Virus record (IMG/VR): IMGVR_UViG_3300017780_003951
Location: 1-40,857 of that record
Strand: one strand, 5' to 3'
DNA length: 40,857 nt
Origin: a virus
Lineage: Duplodnaviria; Caudoviricetes
The notes beneath the pieces were generated by a model. That model did not search any database and was not told the DNA's origin. It worked only from the letters and a program-made list of their open reading frames with translations. The translations under genes were made by a program, and so were the position numbers. Of the stretch, positions 2,603-16,930 are shown piece after piece. The first letter of the stretch is position 1. Each line of letters begins with the position of its first letter.

Positions 2603-3529
2603 TTAAAAAAGTGTGTTTTTAATTATATCCCCTTTACCGTTCCAAAATATAGACTCAAATACTTTCTTTTTATTATTAGTAGCTGATAAACTACTTCGGT
2701 GTGAAAACATTTCTATCTTTTCAAAAGGTGCATCGTACTCGCTTAAATAGGCTGGGTATTCTAAATCACTAAACCATTCATAAAAAGCATCGTGATTAAA
2801 ACCACCCTCTTTATATTCACCCGTTCCTTTGTATGGAATATCGCAATAAATTATCGGATTACTTCCTTGTATTAAAACTTTTTCGTAACTTGTGTTATTT
2901 GTCTGTAGGTTCTGTAGGTTCTGTAGGTTCTGTAGGTTCTGTAGGCGTGTTAAGTGTTCTACTAATTCTAAATTTTGAACATCGCATCTTTTTTCAGTTA
3001 TTTTTTTAACGTGGCTACAAAAAGCTAATCTTCGTTTTTGAATATCTTTTATTTTAAATATACCTTCCATATTTAAACCTAACTTAAACATTGAGGTTTC
3101 GTCTAAATTAACAATTAATTCGTGTGCAAGTCTTTTAAATTCTTCAATATCAGCACCATACAAATATGAATTTTGACTATTACCAAAACTCCAGCAACTC
3201 ATAACAAAACCAGAAAACCAATCCGCCTCGCTATTACTTTTATTTATTTGCTTTTTAAACTCTTCACGTGTTACCCATTCGTAAAATTTAGGTTCTAATT
3301 CTTTATTGTTTTTAATATACTCTACTAAACTATAAATATGTTTATTTAATTCGTTGTAGTGTACGTTAAAACGATAATCTCTTACTGCAGTAAAACTAAT
3401 TGAACCGCCACCACCAAATAAATCGTAAAAGTCTGTTGTTTTTTCGTGTCTGCTTGTAATTTTTTCTAATATTTGAGAAGCTAATTTTCTTTTACTTCCC
3501 ATATACGGTATTCCTAAATTTTGTTTCAT
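2603..3529 (-). CDS. DNA adenine methyltransferase (Dam/D12 class)
   Basis: PYMGSK, DLFGGGGS (SAM-binding motif I), YNELN, YCDIPY (DPPY-like motif IV). Confidence 0.85.
   Translation of the reverse strand: MKQNLGIPYMGSKRKLASQILEKITSRHEKTTDFYDLFGGGGSISFTAVRDYRFNVHYNELNKHIYSLVEYIKNNKELEPKFYEWVTREEFKKQINKSNSEADWFSGFVMSCWSFGNSQNSYLYGADIEEFKRLAHELIVNLDETSMFKLGLNMEGIFKIKDIQKRRLAFCSHVKKITEKRCDVQNLELVEHLTRLQNLQNLQNLQNLQTNNTSYEKVLIQGSNPIIYCDIPYKGTGEYKEGGFNHDAFYEWFSDLEYPAYLSEYDAPFEKIEMFSHRSSLSATNNKKKVFESIFWNGKGDIIKNTLF
2902..2945. repeat. 9-bp tandem repeat (TCTGTAGGT), 4 full copies plus 8 nt, inside the MTase, encoding LQN repeats
   Basis: Read directly. Confidence 0.95.
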
Positions 3530-12229: not shown

Positions 12230-12460
12230 ATGAAAGAATTAAAAGAACTACACGCGCAAATTAAAGACAAAAAAACCTTTAACAAAAACTTATCCGAAAA
12301 ATTATTTTTAAGTGAAGTAACAGTTGAAAACGCTTTTAAAACAAGTGGTAAATTTAAATCCAAACATTTGGAAGTTGTTAATCATTGGTTAAATGTAGAA
12401 CTACGTCTACAACAAAAAGCACTTGAAATGTGGGTAAAAGATTGGGAGATTGTTAATTAA
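12230..12460 (+). CDS. Hypothetical protein, 76 aa (possibly DNA-binding)
   Basis: ORF track; function speculative. Confidence 0.65.
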   Translation: MKELKELHAQIKDKKTFNKNLSEKLFLSEVTVENAFKTSGKFKSKHLEVVNHWLNVELRLQQKALEMWVKDWEIVN

Positions 12461-12475
12461 AACGAAAATGTTATT

Positions 12476-12583
12476 ATGAAAAGATTTTTTAAATGGGAAA
12501 GTAAACCCAACGGGAATTGTCCTGTACAGTCAAATGGGTGTTTTCTGTTTCTTTTGAAACCGAAATCAAAGTATATACGCTAA
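12476..12583 (+). CDS. 35-aa ORF ending at the first array core; possibly a remnant
   Basis: MKRFFKWESKPNGNCPVQ...KYIR; stop TAA lies within CTAAC 12580-12584. Confidence 0.4.
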   Translation: MKRFFKWESKPNGNCPVQSNGCFLFLLKPKSKYIR

Positions 12584-12708
12584 CGGCTCTCGGCTTTGCG
12601 AGGTTGCGTAGAATAAAAAATAACCATTACAAACACACAAATACTTTAAAATTATGAATAAAGTTTTAGAAAATCCCGAAAGCAGCAATGCGATAAAGCC
12701 GATGTTAG
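12580..12708. repeat. attC-like hairpin site 1 (129 bp)
   Basis: CTAAC-GGCTC-TCGGCTTT...TTGC / GCAA...AAAGCCGA-T-GTTAG. Confidence 0.8.
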
Positions 12709-12965
12709 GCGATGTGCCTTTCACTGATGTAGATGGCAAACTAATTTTTATTAATGATATAATTGAACAAACCAATTTCAATGGAGAGCAATATTTAGCA
12801 AGATACCAAGTAGTAGTTGATCCAGCAGATAATGAAGTTTGTCTTTTAATGCTTTATGGAAACGATAAAGCAATGAACCTTTTTAATAGCTATAAATATT
12901 CAGCTTTTGGAACTGTAATAAATGGCAAACTTCGTAAAGGTCGAGTTGTCGGGCATATCGCCTAA
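12654..12965 (+). CDS. Cassette 1 hypothetical protein (YopX-like motif DVDGKLIFINDII)
   Basis: Starts in loop of site 1; stop inside CTAAC of site 2. Confidence 0.75.
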   Translation: MNKVLENPESSNAIKPMLGDVPFTDVDGKLIFINDIIEQTNFNGEQYLARYQVVVDPADNEVCLLMLYGNDKAMNLFNSYKYSAFGTVINGKLRKGRVVGHIA

Positions 12966-13089
12966 CGTCAAAGCGTTGGCGATGTTGGGGATTAGAAAGT
13001 ACAAAAGCTCAAATAAAAACAAATGATAGTAGAAAGCACAAAAGCTCAAATTAAGCACGGAAGCCCCAATATTGCTAATGCATTGTTGG
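12962..13089. repeat. attC-like hairpin site 2 (128 bp)
   Basis: GCGTTGGCGATGTTGGGG 12973-12990 pairs with CCCCAATATTGCTAATGC 13064-13081 (4 G.T); right core GTTGG. Confidence 0.85.
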
Positions 13090-14174
13090 GTGCAGCTCCT
13101 GTCCACAAATTTCCTTATAACTGGAATTTAAAAGATGCAAACTTTACAAAAGATAAAGGCAAAGTATTTAGTTGTTTTGCTTGTGGTGGTGGTTCAACAA
13201 TGGGTTATAAATTGGCTGGATTTGATGTAATAGGACACAGTGATATTGATAAGAAAATGATTGAAGTTTATAAAATAAATCATAATCCTAAATATTCATT
13301 TTTAGAAAGCATTACAACTTTTGCTAAAAGAAAAGATTTGCCAAAAGAACTTTATGAACTTGATATTTTAGATGGTTCGCCACCTTGTAGCAGTTTTTCA
13401 ATGGCTGGAAATAGAGAAAAAGACTGGGGCAAAGAAAAAGTATTTAGAGAAGGTCAAGAATTACAAGTTTTAGACACATTATTCTTTGATTTTATTGATT
13501 TAGCAAAAGAATTACAACCGAAAGTAGTAGTAGCTGAAAACGTAAAAGGATTGCTATTAGGAGAAGCGAAAGAATACGTTATTAAGATTTACAAAGAGTT
13601 TGAAAAAGCTGGTTACTATTGCCAACACTTTTTGCTTGATGCTTCAAAAATGGGTGTGCCACAACGTAGAGAAAGAGTTTTCTTTATTGCATTAAGAAAA
13701 GATATAGCACAACCGTTTTTATATTATGCAGATATGTTTACAGAATTGCCAAAAATTGATATGCAATTTAACGAACCAACAATCACATTAAACGACATTA
13801 AAGACAATAGTGCTAATGATGAAAAATGCGAAATGACTGATGTTAAAAGAAACATCTGGAATAATAGAATTAATGGAGATAGTGATTTTAGCTGCACATT
13901 AGGGCGAATTGAAAACAGACCAAATTCAATGTTTAATAATAATTATTTATATGGTAACAAGCCACTAAATACTATTTCATCAAAAAAGAATGATGTGCTT
14001 TTTGATGAACCAAGACATTGTAATTTTAACGAAAACACATCCGGACAAACATATCCAAAAGATTATAACTTTTTAAATATGCCTTATTTGTATTTAATAG
14101 GAATGAGTGTGCCACCTGTAATGATGGCTCAAATTTCAACTAAAATATACGAACAATGGCTGTCGAAGTTGTAG
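13023..14174 (+). CDS. Cassette 2: DNA (cytosine-5)-methyltransferase
   Basis: FACGGG (I), GSPPC (IV), ENV (VI), QRRERVF (VIII), IGMSVPP (X). Confidence 0.93.
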   Translation: MIVESTKAQIKHGSPNIANALLGAAPVHKFPYNWNLKDANFTKDKGKVFSCFACGGGSTMGYKLAGFDVIGHSDIDKKMIEVYKINHNPKYSFLESITTFAKRKDLPKELYELDILDGSPPCSSFSMAGNREKDWGKEKVFREGQELQVLDTLFFDFIDLAKELQPKVVVAENVKGLLLGEAKEYVIKIYKEFEKAGYYCQHFLLDASKMGVPQRRERVFFIALRKDIAQPFLYYADMFTELPKIDMQFNEPTITLNDIKDNSANDEKCEMTDVKRNIWNNRINGDSDFSCTLGRIENRPNSMFNNNYLYGNKPLNTISSKKNDVLFDEPRHCNFNENTSGQTYPKDYNFLNMPYLYLIGMSVPPVMMAQISTKIYEQWLSKL

Positions 14175-14195
14175 ATGCGTCTTTTGGAATTGCAC

Positions 14196-14326
14196 CTAAC
14201 GTTGTATTATTGTCGTCAGGTGGCGACAAAATAAAAACTAATTTTTAAATTTAAGACAAATTATGAAAGCACAAAACAATATTTCAATTAAAGACCAAAC
14301 CGCCACTTGCGACAATAATGTGTTAG
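14196..14326. repeat. attC-like hairpin site 3 (131 bp)
   Basis: ATTATTGTCG-T-CAGGTGGCG 14206-14225 pairs with CGCCACTTG-CGACAATAAT 14301-14319; single bulged T. Confidence 0.85.
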
Positions 14327-14652
14327 TGGCTGGCATAATTTCATACGAAGGTCGTCAATGGTTAGCGGAAGAATATTCAGAAGAAATTGGAAACGGTGCT
14401 TGGATGGCAAGTCCAATTTATCATACCGATAATGGGCTAGAAGTTCGCCCTGCAGGTGGCAATTGGTGTTTTAAAAGTCGCGGAGCAGTTCCATCTATTT
14501 TAGAACCTAAAAAGCAAAAAGAAGTTTACGAAAGTTGGATTAAACATTTGCAAAAAACAATCAACTTTTTAAGAGGTAAATTTCCAGAAGTTGAATTGGA
14601 TTATAAAAATAAAATTTCGTTTTGGCAAAGTTTGGCAGATGCTTGCCACTAA
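14263..14652 (+). CDS. Cassette 3 hypothetical protein, 129 aa
   Basis: Starts in loop of site 3; stop inside next CTAAC. Confidence 0.75.
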   Translation: MKAQNNISIKDQTATCDNNVLVAGIISYEGRQWLAEEYSEEIGNGAWMASPIYHTDNGLEVRPAGGNWCFKSRGAVPSILEPKKQKEVYESWIKHLQKTINFLRGKFPEVELDYKNKISFWQSLADACH

Positions 14653-14777
14653 CGTTAAAGCATAACAGTAGTTTAGGGAAAGTAAGCCTAATCTATCGGA
14701 GTTAAAACCAAAGATTCCAAGTACAAAAATAATTATAAATCCAGCCTAATGCCTAAATTACTGTTATGCAGTGTTAG
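14649..14777. repeat. attC-like hairpin site 4 (129 bp)
   Basis: GCATAACAGTAGTTTAGG 14660-14677 pairs with CCTAAATTACTGTTATGC 14752-14769. Confidence 0.85.
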
Positions 14778-15114
14778 GGAATCGGTTACATATTTACAAG
14801 CTATGAAAATCACAGAAAAACAATACCAAAAAGCATTGCTTGTAATTAAGCAATACGAAACTCAACAAAAACCTAAAGATATTTTTGAATTATTAAGACA
14901 AGGTTATGATGCGGAAGTGATAAAATACATTATAGAAAAATGCGATTTTGAAATTGACGAAACGTTTTTTCATAGAGATATTGCTTACGGTCTTGAAGTA
15001 GTTATTGAAAGAAAAAAAGCAAACGAACCAATTGCGATTGGAGCTATTGAATTTTTAAAAGCAATAGAAAAACAAGATCGTTTAACTCATCAAGATTATC
15101 TTGATTTTGGCTGA
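14749..15114 (+). CDS. Cassette 4 hypothetical protein (internal MKITEKQY start also plausible)
   Basis: ORF track; start uncertain. Confidence 0.7.
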   Translation: MPKLLLCSVRESVTYLQAMKITEKQYQKALLVIKQYETQQKPKDIFELLRQGYDAEVIKYIIEKCDFEIDETFFHRDIAYGLEVVIERKKANEPIAIGAIEFLKAIEKQDRLTHQDYLDFG

Positions 15115-15131
15115 TTTTCTATAACTGTTCC

Positions 15132-15262
15132 CTAACGCCCCGCAGCTACAAGATGAACTGGATAAAACAAGCCGTGTCACTTCCGAGTTGCACAATCAAT
15201 ACTGAAACAAAACAATTAATAAATTAAAAACTAATACCCGTTTATATTGTAACTGCTGTTAG
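15132..15262. repeat. attC-like hairpin site 5 (131 bp)
   Basis: GCAGCTACAAGATGAACTGG 15142-15161 pairs imperfectly with CCCGTTTATATTGTAACTGC 15237-15256. Confidence 0.8.
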
Positions 15263-15290
15263 CAGACGTTGTGGGTATTTAAAACAAAAC

Positions 15291-15497
15291 GTGATTATGA
15301 AAAATTATTTAGCATTTTATGGAATGGTTTATTACCCATCAGGCGGAATGGATGACTTATTAGGGGATTTTGATACATTAGAGGAAGCTATCGAATCTAT
15401 TACAAAAAAAAATAATGAATCCGATGGAGGTAGCTGGAGTTACTGTTGGGCAAATGTTTATAGTTTACAAGATAGAATTGAAGTTTACACAACTTAA
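15291..15497 (+). CDS. Cassette 5 hypothetical protein (YYPSGGMDD motif)
   Basis: ORF track; entirely within cassette ends. Confidence 0.75.
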   Translation: MIMKNYLAFYGMVYYPSGGMDDLLGDFDTLEEAIESITKKNNESDGGSWSYCWANVYSLQDRIEVYTT

Positions 15498-15529
15498 TTT
15501 CTTCTCAAAACGATTAGTAACAATGTTTG

Positions 15530-15658
15530 CTAACGTTCGACGGCTATACGATGGTTGGGATAAGATAGCCGTAATTTTTCCGATTAACACAAATTATCCC
15601 GACACAAAACAGACTTTAAATTAAACAATTAACCCAACTATTGTATAACCGTTGTTAG
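15530..15658. repeat. attC-like hairpin site 6 (129 bp)
   Basis: ACGGCTATACGATGGTTGGG 15540-15559 pairs with CCCAACTATTGTATAACCGT 15633-15652. Confidence 0.85.
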
Positions 15659-15683
15659 CAGTAGTTATAATACTCAAATTATT

Positions 15684-15944
15684 ATGTACACAAAAGAACA
15701 ATTAAACAAATTAGGTTTTAAAGAAGTAAAAGACCAAGAAACAGGAATTATTGATTTTGTAAATAAAGTTACAAGCAATGTTCATTTAGTTTTAAGCCCA
15801 ATGTTAGAAGAATTATTTATTTGGATTTTAGAAGATGGTGGCGATGAAGATTCAGATGGAACAAAATTAATTATTGATACTTCTGATTTGGAGCAAGCAA
15901 TTGAATTATGTAAGATTATTGTCGGTGTTGACGATGGCTTCTAA
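15684..15944 (+). CDS. Cassette 6 acidic hypothetical protein, 86 aa
   Basis: ORF track; within cassette ends. Confidence 0.75.
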   Translation: MYTKEQLNKLGFKEVKDQETGIIDFVNKVTSNVHLVLSPMLEELFIWILEDGGDEDSDGTKLIIDTSDLEQAIELCKIIVGVDDGF

Positions 15945-15953
15945 TAATTACTG

Positions 15954-16140
15954 CTAACTCATTTATTGACGAATAAAAAGTAATACTTATTATACAAAAC
16001 CACGTACTATTAAATTTTCAGACAATACGCTTAAAAAAGAATATTGTCCGTTTTAGAATTAAATATAACTCAATATAATAAATAGAAATTATGAAAACAG
16101 AAAATACCGAAAACGAGGCATTGAACAAAAACGATGTTAG
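15954..16140. repeat. Atypical junction 7 (CTAACTC half-site; arms do not pair; 187 bp)
   Basis: CTAAC 15954 and GTTAG 16136 present but no matching arms seen. Confidence 0.6.
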
Positions 16141-16300
16141 CGGTTCGTTACTTTCGGATTTAAACTACTGGAAGCAAAGATGTTTATTAGCTGAAAAATG
16201 TTTAGAAGAAAGTCCTAATGACCCAGACATAACAAGTGAGCAAATTAAAGCTCATAATTCTTACCACAAGTTCATTAGTCACTACGGCAATGACCGCTAA
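16091..16300 (+). CDS. Cassette 7 hypothetical protein, 69 aa
   Basis: Reads through GTTAG core (NDVSGS); stop inside CTAAC. Confidence 0.75.
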   Translation: MKTENTENEALNKNDVSGSLLSDLNYWKQRCLLAEKCLEESPNDPDITSEQIKAHNSYHKFISHYGNDR

Positions 16301-16370
16301 CGTTCCCACGATAGGGGCTGTTTGCCTATGCGGTTAGTAGATTACGCCACTAGCTACAAACGTGTGCTAG
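16297..16370. repeat. Short, degenerate hairpin site 8 (74 bp; right core GCTAG)
   Basis: CTAAC-GTTCC-CACG ... CGTG-T-GCTAG; additional GTTAGTAG at 16333. Confidence 0.6.
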
Positions 16371-16418
16371 TAGCTGGACGGATATTAAAGATAAATTAAC
16401 TTATAAAAACTAAATAAA

Positions 16419-16598
16419 ATGGATAAGGAACTAAAAATTACAGATAGACAAATTGCACACCTAAGAGAAGAAATTAGCAGAGTGCAAAGACAAGTACAAT
16501 TAATCAAACAAGGCAAAACTCATTTAGGAGATAAAAATCGAATGGATATTGCTGTTGATTGTTGTAAAGAAATTGACCGTGTATTATGTGAATTGTAG
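16419..16598 (+). CDS. Cassette 8 hypothetical coiled-coil protein, 59 aa (MDKELKITDRQ...VLCEL)
   Basis: Hand-translated; fits between cassette ends 16366 and 16611. Confidence 0.7.
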   Translation: MDKELKITDRQIAHLREEISRVQRQVQLIKQGKTHLGDKNRMDIAVDCCKEIDRVLCEL

Positions 16599-16696
16599 TC
16601 TTGCTACTAACTCACAAATATACACAATACCATTTTCAACTATCTAATTTAGGTATTGCGTAAAAATAAATATTAACAATTAAATAAATAGAAATT

Positions 16697-16894
16697 ATGA
16701 AAACACACACAATTGACCAAGAAGCATTAAGAGAATGGCAACAAGAAGAAAAAGTAATTTTTGCAAGTAGCACAAAAGAAGACAAACAATTGCATTGTAC
16801 TTTAAGAGGCAGTTATGAGGTTTGGCATAAAAAAGAAATAGTTTTAGAAACTATGCAGGCAGGAAAAGCAGTTGAAAAATACAACTCAATATAA
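16697..16894 (+). CDS. Hypothetical protein, 65 aa (outside the array)
   Basis: ORF track; last plus-strand gene. Confidence 0.75.
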   Translation: MKTHTIDQEALREWQQEEKVIFASSTKEDKQLHCTLRGSYEVWHKKEIVLETMQAGKAVEKYNSI

Positions 16895-16896
16895 CA

Positions 16897-16930
16897 TAAA
16901 AAAACCCTAACATTACGCTAGGGTTTTTTT
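16897..16930. terminator. Bidirectional terminator between convergent blocks
   Basis: AAAAAAACCCTA-ACATTACGC-TAGGGTTTTTTT. Confidence 0.8.

Follow-up and report, generated by a model that had tools for sequence, protein, structure and literature searches.

A fixed G·T mispair in the hairpin sites of an integron-like phage cassette array

Described single-strand systems and the phage array

The ability of integrons to recombine single strands is attributed to the I2 helix and to flipped-out bases. The integrase IntI recombines only the folded bottom strand of attC sites, which averages 1.24 G:T against 0.39 (PMC5027507, in the parts covered). Integrase-less arrays (CALINs) have been described in virulent phages, among them Polaribacter phage P12002L, whose attC1 was the sole site of six not integrated by IntI1 (PMC9892861, parts covered). 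A folded phage single strand is also the substrate when CTXphi borrows the I2-less Xer-type enzymes XerC and XerD of its host (PMC4792948, parts covered).

The window analyzed here is the whole 40,857-nucleotide stretch of IMG/VR virus record IMGVR_UViG_3300017780_003951. Between 12,570 and 16,628 it carries the following array, in which T11 and G11 are the bases at position 11 of the outer arms, ‘inner’ refers to the hairpin enclosed by a site, and single coordinates after ‘core’ are starts:

12570–12718, plus strand: site 1, with T11 at 12574, core CTAAC at 12580–12584, core GTTAG at 12704 and G11 at 12714
12602/12689, plus strand: inner G·T of the site 1 inner hairpin, which contains the ORF1 start codon
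12654–12965, plus strand: c1 gene, 103 aa, no family; start in the hairpin loop, stop formed by the TAA of the next core
12952–13099, plus strand: site 2, with T11 at 12956, core at 12962, inner G·T at 12984/13070, core GTTGG at 13085 and G11 at 13095
13023–14174, plus strand: c2 gene, C5 cytosine DNA methyltransferase
14186–14336, plus strand: site 3, with T11 at 14190, cores at 14196 and 14322 and G11 at 14332
14307 and 14219, plus strand: inner pair of site 3, T opposite G past a one-base bulge (register read from the sequence)
14263–14652, plus strand: c3 gene, 129 aa, no family
14639–14788, plus strand: site 4, with T11 at 14643, core at 14649, inner G·T at 14671/14758, core at 14773, then a bulged T and G at 14784
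14749–15114, plus strand: c4 gene, 121 aa, no family
15122–15272, plus strand: site 5, with T11 at 15126, core at 15132, inner G·T at 15155/15243, core at 15258 and G11 at 15268
15291–15497, plus strand: c5 gene, 68 aa, no Pfam family; start past the site
15520–15668, plus strand: site 6, with T11 at 15524, core at 15530, inner G·T at 15553/15639, core at 15654 and G11 at 15664
15684–15944, plus strand: c6 gene, 86 aa, no family; start past the site
15944–15975, plus strand: internal attI-like half site, with T11 at 15948 and core at 15954, lacking a hairpin partner and matching the terminal-site profile
16091–16300, plus strand: c7 gene, 69 aa; start within an orphan right half-hairpin
16121–16147, plus strand: features of that c7 orphan half-hairpin, with inner T at 16121, core at 16136, a bulged T and G at 16147
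16287–16380, plus strand: site 8, with T11 at 16291, core at 16297, core GCTAG at 16366 and G11 at 16376
16320/16351, plus strand: inner G·T of the short, degenerate, 64-nt site 8 hairpin
16419–16598, plus strand: c8 gene, 59 aa, no Pfam family
16597–16628, plus strand: terminal attI-like site (resemblance judged by eye), with T11 at 16601, core at 16607 and no hairpin after it

The AAC/GTT crossover triplet is present in the inverted R boxes of 9/9 left and 7/8 right cores, c8 having GCT instead. No recombinase gene lies within the window. A Rfam search of positions 12300–16900 returned six weak matches, every one under the gathering score, and a generic repeat finder missed the sites. A search for an empty site with the gene that follows site 9 led to three loci, none with a matching empty site; the contigs of four runs contained neither a core joint nor a circle, and contigs drop rare forms.

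The array and its relatives share with integron attC/IntI systems (attCaadA7 and the Vibrio VCR; PMC5027507, parts covered) an invariant AAC crossover triplet, ends that pair only in the circle, a single marked strand that folds slightly better and is richer in G:T, and, at one end of the array, a recombinase together with an attI-like site. Closing complementarity extends over 15 positions here, compared with the 7-base R box of integron attC (PMC5027507, same parts). Both arms here bear a fixed G·T as strand mark and, in a minority, a bulged base, whereas attC has 2–3 extrahelical bases near the L box; the central loop has approximately 5 bases against 1, whereas attC has 5–6 unpaired bases per arm.

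Like the present array, that of P12002L lacks an integrase and carries methyltransferase cargo, and its attC1 is a short site of the same family (TAACG...TGTTA with T11). The published attC2, by our analysis, overlaps a terminal hairpin-less core in the opposite-strand reading. The covered parts of PMC9892861 handle these sites as ordinary attC and report neither the wobble code nor a cognate enzyme. In the literature covered (mostly excluding subscription papers, and without figures) the system and its wobble code are undescribed apart from those P12002L sites. The CTXphi stem is without extrahelical bases, as here, but there the whole phage enters chromosomal dif (PMC4792948, parts covered), whereas here cassettes are stacked at an attI-like site; unlike CTXphi, arrays related to the present one have their own recombinase gene.

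The G·T pair at position 11

The nine CTAAC cores of the window (starting at 12580, 12962, 14196, 14649, 15132, 15530, 15954, 16297 and 16607) are each preceded by a T six bases upstream, as had been noted in the initial annotation, with intervening strings ATACG, ATCGC, TGCAC, TGCCA, GTTCC, GTTTG, TACTG, GACCG and TGCTA. The chance of a T in 9/9 left cores is 1.6e-5 from the local T frequency of 0.293; the other plus-strand CTAAC sequences of the window have T in 16/33, which gives a stricter value of ∼1e-3. The further claim that G stands opposite this T holds for 8/8 cassette starts, the G lying at position 11 in c1, c2, c3, c5, c6 and c8, and, where a T is bulged out (c4 and c7), at position 12. 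For c8 this requires use of the degenerate core GCTAG at 16366; the alternative right core, GTTAG at 16333, was rejected since it pairs poorly and a match in L150 spanning 16298–16369 favors 16366. The fixed G·T mispair at position 11 is confirmed as genuine in the window.

An earlier hand count of about 18 G·T versus about 5 C·A pairs across the stems proved roughly right in number, but the excess is mostly positional. An ungapped count over the eight outer stems and inner stems 1–6 gave 22 G·T and 8 C·A, 13 of those 22 being the two position-11 pairs; the remainder (9 G·T versus 8 C·A) is noisy, as part of sites 1 and 3 falls out of register. Site 2 does have the four G·T pairs ascribed to it, though not the absence of mismatches, as one A×A adjoins the core. 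Strand composition was rejected as the source of the window's wobble bias, the products fG*fT (0.053) and fA*fC (0.054) being nearly equal and leaving the excess of G·T over C·A unexplained.

We then consider 630 cassettes of other phages and bacteria, chosen without use of position 11, from loci found with three anchor patterns and one methyltransferase search (the loci are not all independent). The position-11 pair is G·T in 615/630 cassettes and the T is present in 629/630; among distinct arm pairs the figure is 461/478. The free co-variation of neighboring pairs described for the window is borne out in this set: outer-arm neighbors of position 11 occur in all four pair types. Own-cassette arm pairs (n = 505, no pairing filter) are 63–87% Watson–Crick at positions 5–10 and 12–15 and 2% at position 11, compared with 26–56% for 1012 array junctions, and mutual information at the same flanking positions is 0.26–0.83 bits (0.03 or less for junctions), with none at position 11. 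In the bulged variant (117 G·T cases) the G has moved to position 12 and still faces the T, and this tracking of the bulge fits a fold rather than a duplex half-site. The short site type has T11 in 170/172. A coding constraint on G11 or T11 was rejected, as both are kept outside ORFs (275/283 for the G) and at every codon position. The general plus-strand wobble bias that had been proposed is present but modest (in 478 outer stems, 46 G·T versus 23 A·C once position 11 is set aside), and with plus-strand C×A common in the inner stem, a uniform bias was discarded.

A feature absent from the initial annotation is a mirror-image G·T at the inner hairpin's own position 11. The inner stem mirrors the outer arm, including T11·G and the bulged variant; among 296 hairpin representatives unmatched by the scan patterns, T11 is present in 281 and G·T in 242. 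At inner arm position 2 a paired A almost never occurs, and plus-strand C×A is found in 71/296. The left strand has 3–4 extra bases in 261/296 representatives; 532/571 inner stems are gap-free over the arm, the 3–4 extra bases on one strand lying beside the core, and a minority carry a single bulge near position 10. A third fixed wobble was dismissed: with pattern-matched sites dropped, G·T occurs at inner arm position 8 in just 60/296 and at position 6 in 41/296, an earlier figure of 299/532 having been inflated by the search anchor. The marked strand forms the more stable outer duplex in 333/355 stems, with a small mean gain of ∼1.1 kcal/mol; the native inner hairpin is more stable on the minus strand in 2/6 window sites and 46/164 representatives.

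Cassette boundaries, hairpin exchange and linked recombinases

A cassette runs from the C of a TAAC core through a reusable hairpin, a GTTA core and a gene up to the next TAA, and its ends are complementary across 15 positions, position 11 excepted. Shared cassettes break at CTAA|C. The c2 methyltransferase cassette matches core to core in L001, L002, L012 and L036, in other contexts, and its gene is found with another hairpin in L003 and L004. The hairpin was lost in 24/24 upstream flanks found before different genes, and among genes following differing upstream flanks 22/32 kept it in at least one pair; the four core-to-core methyltransferase loci and the 24/24 upstream clusters indicate that the hairpin travels with one cassette. 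The missing ‘upstream plus hairpin’ pairs do not exclude right-core events, because neighbors are almost never conserved in the loci sampled (1 case). Fifty-five hairpin clusters occur with two or more genes. Replacement of the hairpin under an unchanged gene was seen in 11/32 clusters and broke at the GTTA core; hence the right core is not inert, and selection of one strand may be leaky. A hairpin swap by complete two-strand exchange cutting the inner arm was rejected: its apparent support came mostly from one gene cluster, and with each cluster given a single count the four spacer bases go with the hairpin, not the gene.

The hairpin-less terminal sites (n = 125) have a common profile with a five-base spacer and are putative double-stranded attI-like sites. 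The A expected at position 11 of their second arm is present in only 50% of the 125, so readout of T11 is not strict there. The 5'-most sites have T in 102/132.

Recombinase matches in site-bearing loci are 3' of an array in 28/28 cases, directly so in 27, with that of L423 between two divergent arrays; the distance to the attI-like site is at most 120 nt in 12/16 measured. Eleven linked recombinases score 136–209 bits on TIGR02249, below its cut-off of 265, and far under the XerC and XerD cut-offs, the best profile being the XerA-like NF040815 in 10/11. A linked enzyme aligns to VchIntIA in two pieces, with 34 residues bridging an 82-residue stretch, and the L082 enzyme, encoded at L082:8876–9679, is missing about 48 residues of VchIntIA. 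The linked recombinase is without the IntI insertion (I2), in contrast to complete integrons, whose IntI has the I2 domain. Of four bacterial genomes checked, one gave a match at E 7e-97 and the other three weaker ones only (E about 1e-50); as the window also has no recombinase, supply in trans is an assumption. By sequence comparison the array is integron-like, and the recombinase of related arrays is a predicted XerA-like enzyme, absent from this phage. On the same footing, many Bacteroidota genomes share with this phage swappable gene cassettes whose apparent boundaries are G·T-marked hairpin sites.

Readings of the marked strand

The proposal that the position-11 pair is a recognition or orientation determinant is supported: conserved in 615/630 cassettes and not compositional, it looks like one. 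The accompanying idea that the plus strand folds because it is coding stands only in part, since that strand is marked and probably folded, but it is site polarity that the mark follows. Among assignable phage cassettes the marked strand is coding in 434/442, and so a translation start is carried by the cassette itself, within the hairpin (often in its loop) or beyond it. In bacterial genomes 65 genes are antisense and 13 sense to it (n = 78 cassettes), and the G·T stays with the site. We infer that recombination uses the marked strand; in integrons the recombined strand is the non-coding bottom strand.

We think it likely that the position-11 G·T is a strand-selection code for a XerA-like tyrosine recombinase, supplied from outside and acting on folded single-stranded DNA. 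In the excised circle, the TAACG...TGTTA strand would fold so that an asymmetric loop is flanked by two inverted binding arms of 11 bases each. The enzyme would read T11 on the bound strand and cut the outer arm at AA|C; G, the sole non-A base that pairs with T, would keep the stem paired, while the complementary strand would receive C opposite A, with no T, leaving a single usable strand. The near absence of a paired A at inner position 2 (often C×A) likely blocks the second cut. The partner of the folded site in recombination would be the double-stranded attI-like site that closes the array on its 3' side, and replication would resolve the product, as it does in integrons. We infer each of these steps by the recombinase, from binding and cutting to the choice of strand.

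Several other readings account for part of these observations. The wobble might instead be a structural mark that bends or loosens the arm, for synapse geometry or to block a second exchange, with strand choice coming mainly from the one-sided central loop. The 3–4 extra left-strand bases (261/296) would alone suffice to distinguish the strands, a bulged base beside position 11 is tolerated, and several unpaired features act jointly in integrons (PMC5027507, parts covered); yet the T is more fixed than its partner (629 versus 615 of 630), the left arm of attI-like sites also has T11, there necessarily in an ordinary duplex T:A pair, and the wobble is on both arms and so cannot alone separate the cut from the uncut arm. 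We regard this reading as unlikely. Quite improbable, in our estimation, is that T and G are a footprint of cassette making, left by a copying or templated step without a role in recombination: hairpins reused over many genes and shared ancestry in the arm bases suggest a common assembly route, and position 11 carries no mutual information, but its neighbors take all four pair types while it does not, and the recurrence of the mark, mirrored on the inner arm and in both short and long sites, points to selection.

The sites could also be read as duplex, with T and G belonging to two different half-sites as in two-protein Xer sites, in keeping with a linked XerA-like enzyme that is without the insertion tied to IntI single-strand recombination (PMC4792948, parts covered). 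Such sites would need neither the sequence-free complementarity of cassette ends hundreds of bases apart nor a one-base shift of the G exactly when a bulge is present, and we consider this very improbable. Scarcely credible is the alternative offered in the initial annotation, that the folded molecule is RNA (in mRNA processing or translation control) with G·U simply tolerated. The coding sense of the marked strand in phages and the starts in the loop would suit it, but G·T is retained in 120/122 cassettes whose gene lies on the opposite strand, leading us to reject mRNA folding, and one fixed wobble per arm together with common C×A is unlike the scatter expected from G·U tolerance. An RNA step may nonetheless have a part in cassette creation.

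Strand selection through the position-11 pair, our preferred reading, would leave strand choice apparently written in two fixed wobble pairs, in a very common cassette system that has neither an I2 helix nor flipped-out bases. The small site and its 267-residue enzyme offer a test case for Xer-like action on folded DNA, a step on which PMC4792948, in the parts covered, only speculates. If correct, this reading would also account for the exchange of methyltransferases and other small genes by Bacteroidota phages, and might provide a compact, direction-controlled tool for single-strand recombination. More tentatively, and with considerable doubt, the arrays could represent a separate integron-like lineage with an I2-less Xer-type enzyme and a DNA-encoded code. 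Twin T·G wobbles would pick the strand and the unpaired position 2 would silence the second cut; the 15-pair closing stem would fold the single-stranded array into a four-way junction (hairpin n, closing stem, hairpin n+1 and flanks) from which one exchange frees a circle, and the hairpins would serve as exchangeable expression modules. Present across Bacteroidota and their phages, such a lineage would offer a living model for the passage from Xer to IntI. A pattern for short marine sites matched two loci, and one narrow pattern matches an estimated 570 viral, 3400 genome and 10000 metagenome stretches.

The phage record and the position-11 pair

The window, an entire virus record of 40,857 bases, carries head, tail, lysis and replication genes of a tailed phage. 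Over 12574–16611, nine TAAC cores are interspersed with eight small plus-strand genes. One of these encodes a C5 methyltransferase, and the remaining seven have no Pfam family. A further methyltransferase gene lies elsewhere:

2603–3529, minus strand: second DNA methyltransferase gene, outside the array

Neither a PHROGs search of the 44 window ORFs nor a six-frame search of the window with a profile of array-linked enzymes yielded a tyrosine recombinase. The host is probably a Bacteroidota bacterium, because that phylum holds most genome records matching the site pattern (among the matches listed). Bacteroidota appear among integron-bearing phyla in the portion consulted of PMC8618304; the main text of PMC4889954 has zero occurrences of ‘Bacteroidetes’.

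Each cassette runs from the C of one TAAC core through a hairpin, a GTTA core and a gene to the next TAA, and is closed by an outer stem. The initial annotation claimed an invariant G·T pair at position 11 of that stem, and the window bears this out: T is present six bases upstream of CTAAC in 9/9 cores, with G opposite it in 8/8 cassette starts (at position 12, after a bulged T, in cassettes c4 and c7). Without position 11, the outer stems hold 104 Watson-Crick pairs, 2 G·T, 3 A·C and 3 other mismatches. The accompanying claim of a general plus-strand wobble bias stands only in part, since our count of 22 G·T versus 8 C·A is near the earlier tally but 13 of those 22 sit at position 11, leaving 9 versus 8. 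Strand composition was rejected as the cause of the wobbles, the odds being equal (G·T 0.053, C·A 0.054).

Related loci were fetched by searching with the methyltransferase and with the gene after the array, and with patterns fixing only the cores and part of the inner left arm (among the matches listed), with full flanks for 80 loci per fetch. A site finder blind to position 11 and to the outer arms detected at least 1015 unique sites across 601 sequences, against 2 matches in reversed sequences (one strand); T11 was present in 956/1015 (among the matches listed). For 505 neighbouring site pairs taken without a pairing filter, cassette start and end were complementary in 63–87% at positions 5–10 and 12–15, dropping to 2% at position 11 and 23% at position 16 (among the matches listed). 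The pairs at position 11 were G·T (394), C·T (65), T·T (33), A·T (11) and G·G (2). At 1012 array junctions, the two adjoining arms are complementary in only 26–56% (among the matches listed); because own-cassette arms pair far better, the closing stem is a property of the cassette, and would be expected to form once the cassette is circular.

With the register corrected for a one-base bulge, the conservation seen in the window extends to 615 of 630 cassettes for G·T and 629 for T, and to 461 of 478 distinct arm pairs for G·T (among the matches listed). Both sets required 9/10 other positions to be paired, which caps mismatches elsewhere; outside position 11 the 478 arm pairs contain 46 G·T versus 23 A·C (p = 0.008). 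The position-11 G·T pair is a real, highly conserved feature.

The strand that carries the mark

The gene lies on the marked strand (that reading T11 and AAC) in 434/442 assignable viral cassettes, and on the opposite strand in 65/78 genome and 49/70 metagenome assignable cassettes. Folding of the mRNA, the alternative raised in the initial annotation, is ruled out as the cause of the G·T pair by its retention in 120/122 antisense-gene cassettes. A coding constraint is likewise ruled out: outside ORFs, G11 is kept in 275/283 cases and T11 in 346/347, and G11 is kept across codon positions 1, 2 and 3 (52/53, 97/99 and 31/33). The proposal that the plus strand folds survives as probable, with the strand defined by site polarity and not by coding. 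DNA folding energy favours the marked strand in most stems (333/355 outer and 116/164 inner, by 1.1–1.4 kcal/mol); among window stems this holds for 8/8 outer but only 4/6 inner. As the gap is only 1.1–1.4 kcal/mol, the data suggest that the pair acts through recognition more than stability.

We consider it quite probable that the position-11 G·T is a strand-selection mark. T·G would keep T on the AAC strand and the stem paired, while the complementary strand would have C opposite A, in both arms; T-A at this position would leave both strands equal. This analysis establishes the site anatomy and its covariation, the two fixed wobbles and their polarity, the side of the crossover, and the linkage to the enzyme. 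In the scheme that we propose, the marked strand would fold and a recombinase, probably supplied in trans, would read T11 and cut at AA|C; the second cut would be blocked, with resolution by replication. Its models are IntI-attC chemistry and Xer-driven CTXphi integration, as set out in the sections consulted of PMC5027507 and PMC4792948, respectively. The I2 helix, an extra IntI domain, is described in part of PMC7790495 as having enabled single-strand recombination in IntI.

The inner hairpin, the array ends and the linked recombinase

The inner stem (between CTAAC and GTTAG), followed inward from GTTA, repeats the arm in mirror image: a near-invariant A and then, eleven places along from the first base of the arm, a T. 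Of 296 hairpin representatives outside our own scan patterns, 281 have this T and 242 pair it with G; the TCG bulge variant of the outer arm recurs here. Window sites 1, 2, 4, 5, 6 and 8 carry the inner G·T, as does site 3 after a bulge, by reading of the sequence. Inner-arm position 2 differs from the outer arm (the T-A pair of the outer arm in only 7/296 inner arms, C×A in 71/296) and adjoins the would-be second cut; attI-like sites are also poor in T there (9% of 125). Three to four extra bases lie beside the core, on the left strand of the hairpin. Long hairpin modules are near-constant (core to core 120–125 nt in 607/759), with separate short classes of 40–90 nt.

The array ends are hairpin-less, attI-like cores that share a profile in which AAC is followed by T, a five-base spacer and a degenerate arm. 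The window core at 15954 falls within the profile set, and that at 16607 is similar by eye. Read in this way, the array has six cassettes up to an internal attI-like site, and beyond it two damaged cassettes that end in a second such site. Site 7 (15954–16140) lacks a hairpin and joins an attI-like half site, through an A-rich leader, to an orphan right half-hairpin; this leader resembles that after site 9 (repeat D3, 16071–16122 versus 16677–16728, 77%), as if two platforms stood in tandem. A near-palindromic motif, possibly a regulator or promoter element, lies ∼15–25 bases after the attI-like core in 11/125 terminal sites:

about 15975–15990 in the window, and in fetched loci L018, L095, L109, L113, L118, L123, L154, L398, L426 and L428: A/T-rich near-palindrome

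Of 30 recombinase matches in the loci, some of which overlap on one contig, 27 lie 3′ of all sites, two have no site, and one lies between two divergent arrays and 3′ of one of them. This last is the single recombinase of a viral contig (L423) that bears two arrays in opposite orientation. The linked enzymes retain catalytic residues; XerA-like is the best score in 10/11, and all fall below the IntI cut-off. Xer sites have arms of roughly 11 bases. The enzyme of locus L082 lacks ∼48 residues found in VchIntIA. Four bacterial genomes were checked, with a strong recombinase match in one; the remaining genome matches, at E values around 1e-50, could be ordinary Xer proteins. Phage recombinases are ∼267 aa and directed away from the array, whereas most chromosomal enzymes are 354–561 aa, with N-terminal extensions, and most are directed toward it.

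Relation to integrons, and cassette mobility

The position-11 G·T probably works like the attC strand mark of integrons. However, the phage sites differ from attC in extrahelical bases and spacer shape, and the array-linked recombinase differs from that of a complete integron (IntI) in its integrase domain; for these reasons, the sites are a variant of the integron attC kind, not members. Qi et al. 2023 reported a CALIN in Polaribacter phage P12002L, in which, according to the portion consulted, IntI1 did not integrate attC1 and attC2 did recombine (PMC9892861). P12002L attC1 is a short site of the same family as the window sites. The cassette that begins there has T·T at position 11 of its closing stem, while four other closing stems on the strand have G·T. 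The published attC2 coincides in part with what this analysis reads, on the opposite strand, as a terminal core. The literature searched contained no description of the wobble code or of the linked enzyme.

The methyltransferase cassette is matched core to core in four loci (L001, L002, L012 and L036), and from the GTTA core onward in two (L003 and L004). With each cluster of the 820 long sites counted once, upstream flanks found before different genes lost the hairpin in 24/24, while 32 genes found after different flanks kept it (17), both kept and replaced it (5), replaced it (6) or were intermediate (4); 55 hairpin clusters are each associated with at least two genes. In one of 11 ‘replaced’ pairs the arm ends are identical, which may be loop divergence. 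As upstream flanks lose the hairpin and genes mostly keep it, crossover can be placed mainly at the left core; the right core apparently takes part in exchange less often. Contigs from four sequencing runs contained no joint at a core, and thus give no direct sign of current activity. Contigs from two runs (X3 and X4) skip window 16414–16591, almost exactly the c8 gene, with a short side of only 21 bases; these contigs may carry different cargo between the same arms, or may come from a different organism.

The gene that follows the array (16697–16894) is free-standing in the window but lies inside a cassette in L081 (2018–2400), and among relatives of the methyltransferase many are ordinary genes that have no sites. 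Because both are found in the two settings, genes appear to pass between cassette and non-cassette form.
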